A DNA stretch of 64,000 nucleotides from positions 146,754,001-146,818,000 of the forward strand of contig OX597817.1 of NCBI GenBank assembly GCA_951406725.2. Reading direction: 5' to 3'. Within the stretch, counting starts at the first letter, position 1. Every line of letters begins with the position of its first letter. The position numbers and the translations under genes are program-made. Below are positions 25,471 through 28,859 of this stretch, in pieces. This DNA comes from Octopus vulgaris (lineage: Eukaryota). The notes below the pieces were generated by a model that was given only the letters and a program-made list of their open reading frames with translations, had not been told where the DNA came from and did not search any database.

Positions 25471-27087
25471 CACTGAGATCATGGGCGTTGCGTTTGGAAT
25501 CCAGCTAGAAAGTATAAAGACGGTTGCCTCTGATACGACCCTATGGAGGAGGCGTTGCGTTTGTATTACACTGTACAAGTCGATAATATAACTAGCTTGA
25601 TAATATAACTAGCTTGATAATATAACTAACTCTGCTTACTCTGACCAAATCATATAAGCTCAAACAGCGAGTTCTCAGAAATTCTTCCGACAAATTGAAA
25701 AGTTTAAAAGCCTAATGCCTAAGTTAAAAAAACACACACACACAAAATTGAAATAAAAAGAGAAAAATAAAAATAAAAACACCCAAACAATCTAATAACC
25801 CCAGCATCGTACTTTACTACTTTTCTGACCAAACAAGAGACAAAACTCGAATCTCTATATTTCCATCTTACACATATGAACTCACGGTTGACATACAACA
25901 CATCTGTTTTAAAACGCAATAAATCTTAATGCATTTTCTACCGGCTTTTAATGATTTGCTATCCAAAAGTCGATATTTGTAAAGATCAATGGAACTTATA
26001 CGAGGAGACCGGCAAATTGCTTTTGTGCCCTGCACCACAAACCTTCTGTATTATTTGACTTTCAGAGGACAACTGGATTAAACTCAAAAGCTATACTGAT
26101 TTTTTTCTTTCCTTTTTATATTTTCTATATTTTTCATTTTTAATCCGTGGTTAGATAGCGCTGTTGTCGCATCTTTTATGTATTAAGATCAAAATAACAA
26201 AACCAGCAACAACTAAAGCAGTAACAACAACAACAACAGCAGAACAGCAACAATAACAACAACAACAATTTCTGCACATGCATGTCATACTGTTCACTGC
26301 ATTACAAATCTATGGCTTTGTATCGCATAAGCATTAGAGCCGCAAACAGGGAGTCTGTTTTATTGATCTATAACTGTATTCTCTGCAGTAGATAATGTGG
26401 ATAATGATGGCCACCGTCGACGACGACGACAAGGGAGATGACGAAGATGGTAATGATGAGGATTAAAGTGGTGATGATGATGATGATGATGGTGGTGGTG
26501 GTGATCATGATGGTGTCCACTTCCGTCGAATACATCTGCGACTTCATTAACTAGAATTTTAAAACAGCAAAAGAGAGAACATTAAATGTTGAATTTTAAC
26601 GAGGGCGTATTCCCACAATGTAGATTCACTATAACCCGTTGGCGATATGTTAATAGAAAGAAGACTCAGACAAAGGTTTTTAACCACAGGTTTTTATCTC
26701 TCTGTGGACAGAAAAAACTTTGCGTCGTTTTACTATACACACACACACACACACACTCTCACTCACACATACACACACACACACACACATATATATATAT
26801 ATATATATATATATATATTTATATATATATATATATATATATATATATATATATATATATATATATATATGTTTGTTGAAATGGAAAGATGAATTTTCTT
26901 GTTACAGATTATTCAAAAGTTTAACCGATACCTAGGTAGCAAAAATCACAGCAGAAAAAAACACGGTTGGAGATAAGACCATATGGTGTTGCAACCGTGC
27001 GTTGGTGCGGACAATTGAAGTTTAATATAATTAGTGAATGGAAGAAATGGAGTTGAACGAAGATTGTACAGAATTCCTTTTATTACA

Positions 27088-27167
27088 TTCTACACATGTT
27101 TCAAAGGCCACAATTTTCCAAATTCTGATTAAATAAGGATACCATATTGCAGCTTTCTCTTCAGGAA
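27088..27167 (-). ncRNA. Type-I hammerhead ribozyme motif (left arm)
   Basis: Inverted copy of 28346-28425. Confidence 0.7.
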
Positions 27168-28345
27168 AAACCAGGAATTACGTTGTCAGAACAAAACAAA
27201 ACAGAGGCGCAGCAAAGCAATTCGAACGAGGACGCTCCTTAAGAGCCCATGGATAAACTGTTTATCAATGTACGTTGAAATCGGGGGTTGGTGGGGTCCG
27301 TTGGAATACTTACAGGTCAGGCCGCGGTCAAATCTAGTAGGTGAGGAATTAATGAGAACAAGGGGTGTGGAGATGTTCTGTGTGACCAAAACTAATGTTC
27401 TGAATATTTAAAGAATACATGGTGTATTTCTTAGGGGCGAGACAAAACCGCCAATGGGGACATCGAAAAGCCGTCTGTAAAAGCCCGTTTACCAAACGGC
27501 CTCTGGCGAACAATATGTGGAAAAGCTCAGAGTTACAAAGATTACACCTCCTTCTGCCCCTATCAAACGGGAGAAGGAGGTGTAATCTTTGTAACTCTGA
27601 GCTTTTCCACATATTGTTCGCCAGAGGCCGTTTGGTAAACGGTCTTTTACAGACGGCTTTTCGATGTCCCCATTGGTGGCGTCATACTTATCTTACATAT
27701 AAATGATACCTAGGACAATTAACACCTTATTACCCTATTAAAAAGAAAAAAATTTTTGGAAATAATTTTTGAAAAAACTTTTTAAAAAAATTCTCTGAAT
27801 AACTCTTGCAAGGGGAAATTACTCCCCTTATGCGATTGGTCGGTTTTTTGTTTTTTTAGAAGCAAACGCCGGAATTATATACCCTTGTGATTCTTTGACG
27901 ATGTTAATTTTTATACAAGCAGGCCACAGACGAACACACGAACACAGAAAATTTTTTTCAGCCGCGTGACAGGCCTTTTTCAGCAGTGCTCATTATCTAG
28001 CGCCCCTCGCCAACACACGGGGGCGCACACATAGGCTAGTATACACATACATGCTTTTAGGTAGGTTTTGTCTCGCCCCTAAGAAATACACCATGTATTC
28101 TTTAAATATTCAGAACATTAGTTTTGGTCACACAGAACATCTCCACACCCCTTGTTCTCATTAATTCCTCACCTACTAGATTTGACCGCGGCCTGACCTG
28201 TAAGTATTCCAACGGACCCCACCAACCCCCGATTTCAACGTACATTGATAAACAGTTTATCCATGGGCTCTTAAGGAGCGTCCTCGTTCGAATTGCTTTG
28301 CTGCGCCTCTGTTTTGTTTTGTTCTGACAACGTAATTCCTGGTTT

Positions 28346-28425
28346 TTCCTGAAGAGAAAGCTGCAATATGATATCCTTATTTAATCAGAATTTGGAAAAT
28401 TGTGGCCTTTGAAACATGTGTAGAA
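28346..28425 (+). ncRNA. Type-I hammerhead ribozyme motif with long stem II (right arm)
   Basis: TTC-CTGAAGA-GAAAGCTGCAAT...ATTGTGGCCTTT-GAAAC-ATGT-GTA-GAA. Confidence 0.7.
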
Positions 28426-28859
28426 TGTAATAAAAGGAATTCTGTACTATCTTCGTTCAACTCCATTTCTTCCATTCACTAAATATATATATATATATGT
28501 ATATATATATGTATATATATATGACGAACATTATTACTCATGAGAGATAACAATGTTAGTGCCCGGAAGCTTAAAGCAGCATAAACAAAATTAATATATA
28601 TATAATAATTATATATAACAAGGACACTAAGAAGCACCAACTTTGCTAAAAACAGGAGTCAGAAAATGCTTCGAAGCTACAAGAATTAGCACTAAATTTT
28701 TACAGGCATGGTTGGAATAAAAAACTAAAAAAATAAGGATTGCAAATTTGCATGAAGGAATACCAGTTGACCTGGTATCATGATTTCGAATTTAGCGCCA
28801 AAAGCACTTGATTATGTTTAGCCAAGTCTACTCATAACAATAACTATATTTCACGTCAA

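Follow-up and report, generated by a model that had tools for sequence, protein, structure and literature searches.

The Penelope-like elements (PLEs) of the Hydra clade, which carry hammerheads and insert into (TA)n targets, are the closest described relatives of the element analyzed here, and their open reading frame (ORF) ends with a CxH motif followed by about ten residues before the stop (PMC8557442). One of them, Hydra-1_Obim (Craig et al. 2021, PMC8557442), combines a C terminus bearing CxxC, E, N, CxH and a short run to the stop with a sense-strand hammerhead in the 3′ UTR, (TA)n targets and 5′ truncation. Inverted arrangements of PLE copies are also covered in that work. In palindromic Penelope insertions (Arkhipova et al. 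2013, PMC3846280), inverted truncated copies lie head to head with one-sided tails, self-priming was proposed for the palindromic junctions, and a derivative shows an internal microhomology deletion. Dual opposite-strand min-HHRs, 100–700 bp apart, have been reported as well (Cervera and De la Pena 2014, PMC4209133). Introns are on record for two relatives. Drosophila Penelope yields both spliced and unspliced RNA from an intron in its pLTR (Schostak et al. 2008, PMC2377424), and Chlamys-3_cRei has a 398-bp 5′UTR intron (PMC8557442); both introns lie in the 5′UTR, downstream of the transcription start, and are supported by RNA.

Here we analyze a 64,000-nucleotide stretch of Octopus vulgaris DNA (the window). 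An initial annotation had noted in it a snap-back PLE whose two arms resemble spliced and unspliced copies, and had proposed that reverse transcriptase (RT) switched between RNA isoforms after hairpin priming. Our analysis retains the fold-back and replaces the splicing event, with a probability of roughly 0.6, by a loss of DNA from one arm.

A Head-to-Head Pair of Truncated Copies in a TA Array

Arm alignment and an inverted-repeat search recover a giant hairpin in which the 525-bp left arm is the reverse complement of the 911-bp right arm, apart from four substitutions and one 386-bp gap; there are no other differences (Table 1). The spacer between the arms is 16 nt long, and two more base pairs narrow the loop to ~10 nt. 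The geometry first described for this locus is thus reproduced, as is its (TA)n setting, since TA arrays lie on both flanks. The 3′ ends of the two copies face outward, forming a head-to-head pair of 5′-truncated copies, and the left copy alone continues beyond the palindrome for 160 nt, probably as a one-sided tail native to the element. Folds of the whole region had unremarkable z scores (−0.6 and −1.05).

Table 1. Features of the palindromic insertion and its flanks (positions in the window)
Feature	Position	Strand	Details
Left target flank	26737–26870	.	(CA)n then (TA)n; TA array proper 26789–26870; repeat search
Left-copy-only 3′ extension	26871–27030	-	160 nt; alignment; likely one-sided tail of the element
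Left arm	27031–27555	-	5′-truncated PLE 3′ end without the 386-bp segment; carries the family letter at each of the four arm substitutions
Left-arm hammerhead	27073–27179	-	core starts 27164; predicted by descriptor
Left-arm deletion junction	27448–27449	-	GG microhomology
Hairpin tip	27556–27573	-	native coding sequence (PFDRG) continuing left copy to 27573; loose ends at 27572 and fold
Right arm	27572–28482	+	5′-truncated PLE 3′ end, long native form; alignment and public-run contigs
ORF end	27572–27706	+	last 44 codons and stop; CxxC, E, N, CxH; translation and by-eye comparison with fig. S7 of PMC8557442
Arm substitutions (right/left letter)	27643 T/G; 27677 T/C; 28371 A/G; 28448 T/A		arm alignment
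386-bp segment missing from left arm	27679–28064	+	native to family; alternative registers 27678–28063, 27680–28065
Helitron-like ends within the segment	27691–28039	+	TC preceded by A; GC hairpin 28000–28026; CTAG followed by T
Strongest donor-like site of the arm	28058–28066	+	GT at 28061; 7/9 U1 matches; overlaps proposed acceptor
Right-arm type I hammerhead	28334–28440	+	predicted; core CUGAAGA 28349, long helix II, GAAA 28411, 4-bp helix III
Right target flank	28483–28522	.	(TA)n array; repeat search

The architecture of head-to-head truncated PLE copies is already known. As in the insertions described in PMC3846280, the copies here are inverted, truncated and joined through a palindromic junction, with a tail on one side. 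In contrast to those insertions, no ORF-bearing body is present, the tail measures 160 nt rather than 30–40, and the deletion sits within one arm of the palindrome itself.

The stretch 27556–28482 was compared with the contigs of 4 of 24 public runs (X1–X4), using an 85% identity cut and a 31-letter rule for calling a contig bridging. X1 was read to ~80%, the best run contained 0.55 of the words of the locus, and contigs lose rare variants. Statements on alleles and joints draw on 40 of the 116 variant rows, 24 of the 103 loose ends and 32 of the 1,255 pieces, and the RNA labels of the runs, including that of X2, are guesses. The hairpin itself is read from the assembly, and no contig in the four runs crosses its tip or its left junction. 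Inverted PLE structures are also said to cause assembly trouble (PMC8557442), so that a fold-back artefact of assembly has to be considered. We regard it as very unlikely: the two arms are set apart by their substitutions, the gap and the tail, a partial match links the tip to native sequence, and the window contains no N. Moreover, with at most 0.55 of the words present in any run and both junctions absent from the contigs, the samples behind the four runs may simply lack the insertion.

Identity of the Element

The right arm translates as RRRCNLCNSELFHILFARGRLVNGLLQTAFRCPHWWRHTYLTYK, followed by a TGA stop at 27704–27706. Set beside fig. S7 of PMC8557442 and judged by eye, this ORF end shows CxxC and CxH around a conserved E and N, as in the Hydra clade. 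Because the 40-residue piece scored in no database search (word search, 0/1 candidate; phmmer, 0; Pfam, none above the cut-off; Atlas, none), the placement follows from this comparison of motifs by eye. Both copies reach just 44–46 codons into the ORF, and the RT with RWK/DKT motifs and the GIY-YIG domain lacking CCHH that are expected of the clade would lie outside them. Together with the hammerheads and the (TA)n target, the coding end supports the earlier Penelope-like assignment; the C-terminal coding end that had been ascribed to both arms is complete only with the 386-bp segment. The general habits of PLEs are likewise apparent, in that the element is multicopy, 5′-truncated and inverted, with a one-sided tail of probable native origin. 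Contigs aligning to it numbered 757 in X1, 54 in X2, 37 in X3 and 391 in X4, and their cover climbs toward 28482, as expected from 5′ truncation. By sequence, then, both copies represent the 3′ end of a high-copy Penelope-like family whose C terminus is of the Hydra-clade type.

A sense-strand hammerhead in the 3′ UTR, a further Hydra-clade feature, is predicted by a descriptor that matches the 64 kb only at 28349 (+) and 27164 (−), and that matched 2 of 2,000 shuffles of the right arm. Its predicted cut in the right arm falls after 28429, and next to the core helix I is imperfect. Rfam returned no hammerhead match, and a 25-nt hammerhead pattern found none in metagenome and prokaryote contigs. 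The descriptor nevertheless agrees with the annotation in placing a putative hammerhead in each arm.

Like Hydra-1_Obim, then, the element pairs this C terminus with a predicted 3′ UTR hammerhead, (TA)n targets and 5′ truncation. Its C-terminal residues and hammerhead differ by eye from those given for Hydra-1_Obim in PMC8557442, marking a different family; in addition, the 3′ UTR is much longer here (~640 nt between the stop and the hammerhead core), helix II is long, and the RT and endonuclease core is missing from the copies. The family seems to be undescribed in the searchable literature, the octopus repeat library of PMC13282606 standing outside this comparison. By eye, the far end of the left tail (26871–26935, −) resembles the initial 60 bases of the consensus given for Hydra-1_Obim (PMC8557442).

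The 386-bp Segment Is Native to the Family

The segment missing from the left arm holds the last ORF codons and the stop. Among the 32 pieces listed of 1,255, one contig (X2 record 9) bridges its 5′ end, with two more crossing by 9 and 15 nt, and four (X1-4, X2-13, X3-19 and X4-28) bridge its 3′ end. Because contigs of other copies cross both ends and the segment carries the ORF end, the short left arm is the derived one; the right arm stands as the long native form, which the initial annotation had called unspliced. The break in the left arm is ambiguous through a GG microhomology, giving three registers that read GG..TA, GC..AG and CG..GG. The GC..AG register had been proposed with one mismatch, and that mismatch is the right arm's own letter at 27677, where the family letter is C (14,253 of 15,336 depth in X1 and all depth in X2, X3 and X4). 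Thus, this register holds as described and in fact fits exactly.

At all four arm substitutions the nonfamily letter is on the right arm, a one-sidedness expected by chance in 12.5% of cases, and X1 keeps a small residual depth at these positions. These letters could come from a second source copy or template. Indeed, two templates without splicing might account for the whole locus, if two cDNAs were primed at both target ends and joined at the tip, the left one made from an already deleted source copy or by an RT that jumped 386 nt on RNA at GG. Consistent with this, both strands are cut and extended in vitro by a PLE protein for which a dimer is predicted (PMC11167929), the 3′ ends of the arms lie at different points, a 143-nt X1 piece of depth 144 is identical to the right arm, and the public-run contigs reveal other internal deletions in the family. 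However, for such an origin the two cDNAs would have to be truncated independently within 20 nt of each other, or a further annealing step would be needed; the form skipping 386 bp is absent from the contigs of all four runs; and at 28083, 28093 and 28103 the two arms have the same letters, which are uncommon among family copies. We hold it to be an unlikely alternative, though the likeliest of the rivals.

None of the four joints listed for the four runs uses the segment ends. They are instead deletions or replacements at 27834>27882, 27835>28010 and 28315>28436, and an inversion joint at 28255/28416 in X4, the family's second inversion. Contig depth, which is not copy number, falls mid-segment in all four runs; over 27740–27990 in X1 it lies several-fold to 30-fold below the upstream coding end. 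Mid-segment pieces are often 87–90% alike, near the 85% cut, which would explain the dip only in part. The interval 27740–27990 is a variable region of the 3′ UTR, and the X2 joints 27834>27882 and 27835>28010 fall there.

Within the segment, 27691–28039 has the ends of a nonautonomous Helitron: a 5′ TC, a 3′ hairpin and a terminal CTAG, lying between A and T (Table 1). The ends resemble those of an element at about 13807–14189, and a Helitron-like insertion into the right arm after the palindrome had formed would also leave the arms unequal. We give this account almost no credence. Family contigs under all three organism labels cross both ends of 27691–28039, which largely rules out a postinsertion Helitron here; 37 bp of the gap fall outside it; it has no clear homology to the element at 13807–14189; and neither the joints listed nor 24 of the 103 loose ends include an empty site or independent copies. 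The family letter at 28021, moreover, alters the GC hairpin. If it is a Helitron at all, 27691–28039 is possibly an ancient one, fixed in the PLE family and carried under all three organism labels.

The Gap Is Poorly Explained as an Intron

The initial annotation read the gap as a spliced intron, and the case for that reading begins with the exact fit of the GC..AG register to the family allele. Among deletions of 300–470 bp, 345 of 64,273 (0.5%) are readable as GY..AG, rising to 77 of 4,316 (1.8%) for those with at least 2 nt of microhomology, so that such ends seldom arise by chance; this also counts against a deletion at the DNA level. A removable-looking segment upstream of the hammerhead in the pLTR region recalls the introns of Drosophila virilis Penelope (PMC2377424) and Chlamys-3_cRei, which serve as precedents. 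Unlike those introns as described in the two reports, the gap here begins in the coding end, has a nonconsensus GC donor and finds no RNA support in the contigs of the four runs.

The splice sites themselves do not behave as a U2-type intron would lead one to expect. GY..AG ends occur in one of the three registers. The GC donor has 2 of 9 U1 matches and ranks 25th among 77 GY sites. GC donors make up ~1% of human introns, and on average they are closer to consensus at their other positions (PMC3167603); the strong U1 pairing expected of a GC–AG intron is thus lacking. At the acceptor, another AG only 4 nt upstream (28059–28060) would be skipped, no YTRAY branch motif occurs in 28000–28064, and the site ranks 31st of 39 by pyrimidine count and a middling 15th of 36 by weight matrix, in place of the branch point, pyrimidine tract and first AG of a U2-type intron. 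The GT..AG reading (27676–28060), with a donor matching U1 at 3 of 9 positions, is ruled out by the extra edits it needs.

Excision would also take the ORF stop and the last residues. Contigs that may derive from RNA, their RNA label being a guess, cross both proposed splice sites unspliced; the spliced junction 27678>28065 matches none of the four joints listed for the contigs of the four runs; and depth shows no step at 28064. Junction likelihoods, a rough guide built on human matrices, came to 4.9e-7 (GC weight 0.01) or 4.5e-6 (GC weight 0.1) for splicing and from 3.8e-6 (uniform) to 2.7e-5 (microhomology-favored) for deletion, splicing at the higher GC weight being about level with uniform deletion.

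The proposed RT switch between RNA isoforms fails on polarity. The strand growing after fold-back is sense and can be copied only from an antisense template, so a direct switch to a sense RNA isoform is unworkable. A two-cDNA version escapes this objection: one cDNA from a cryptically GC–AG-spliced RNA and one from unspliced RNA, primed at both cut ends, could be joined by homology after fold-back, which is workable in view of the in vitro extension of both cut strands by a PLE protein (PMC11167929). The mid-segment dip in depth in all four runs would also suit it. Set against the weak donor, the skipped AG, the missing branch motif, the loss of the stop and the unspliced contigs, this version appears quite improbable. 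If true, it would be a genomic record of a PLE copying spliced sense RNA, with two templates in one event, and arms from spliced and unspliced RNA would bear on why PLEs keep introns and on sense versus antisense templates (PMC3846280). Our search of the openly available literature brought up no PLE palindrome in which one arm is spliced and the other unspliced, and a 2026 retrozyme preprint adds nothing on this point.

The strongest donor-like site of the arm overlaps the proposed acceptor (Table 1). A real 5′UTR intron spanning the hammerhead, with GT 28061 as its donor, is possible, and the left-arm deletion destroys that donor. An acceptor-like site with a pyrimidine run occurs at 26932 (−) in the left tail.

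A Probable Fold-Back Insertion and Microhomology Deletion

The tip of the hairpin retains the mark of the event. In X1, X3 and X4, contigs from other copies run out of the stretch at 27572, and up to 27573 their letters agree with the loop read in reverse complement; since these loose ends match, the loop is native coding sequence of the left copy. At the tip, the end of the left-copy cDNA pairs back on itself in the fold with 4 of 5 pairs. This pairing fits self-priming as proposed for head-to-head PLE palindromes in PMC3846280, and with the arm alignment it bears out the fold-back geometry originally suggested.

Starting from what is observed, namely the geometry, the microhomology and a loop and a segment that are both native, we infer the following course. 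An endonuclease would have cut in (TA)n, and the RT, primed at the left flank, would have copied the 160-nt tail, then the hammerhead with the entire 3′ UTR, and finally 40–50 codons before halting at 27573. The cDNA end may then have paired back on itself, its extension making the right arm, and the product would have been resolved at the AT-rich site 28482 and joined to (TA)n. The 386-bp deletion at GG could have arisen during resolution of the 0.9-kb near-perfect hairpin or later; long inverted repeats at close spacing are deletion-prone (PMC7999016).

Fold-back insertion of one cDNA, combined with a DNA-level deletion that cost the left arm 386 bp at the GG microhomology, is to us the best explanation (about 0.6). 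Besides the rarity of GY..AG ends among deletions, it has to accommodate a hairpin center that the deletion spared, and the four one-sided substitutions with their residual depth in X1, which could mean two different templates rather than one. If fold-back and deletion are indeed the origin, the locus is an ordinary insertion, useful as a clean fold-back junction on native sequence.

Other Repeats in the Window

A nonautonomous Helitron-like element with flank is present as two inverted copies (about 13807–14189 and 32719–33374), 95% alike over 658 bp; the ends at 13807–14189 read TC after A, a hairpin, and CTAG before T. The frames at 35230–35631 and 44978–45301 resemble C-terminal fragments of non-LTR retrotransposons, the first with a weak zf-RVT match (E 0.015) and the second with none. 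A SINE-like repeat of ~185 bp has 15 matches in the window, including 3830–4203 and 22122–22488, and occurs twice as tandem pairs. Finally, a short interstitial (CCCTAA)n run lies at 51793–51826.
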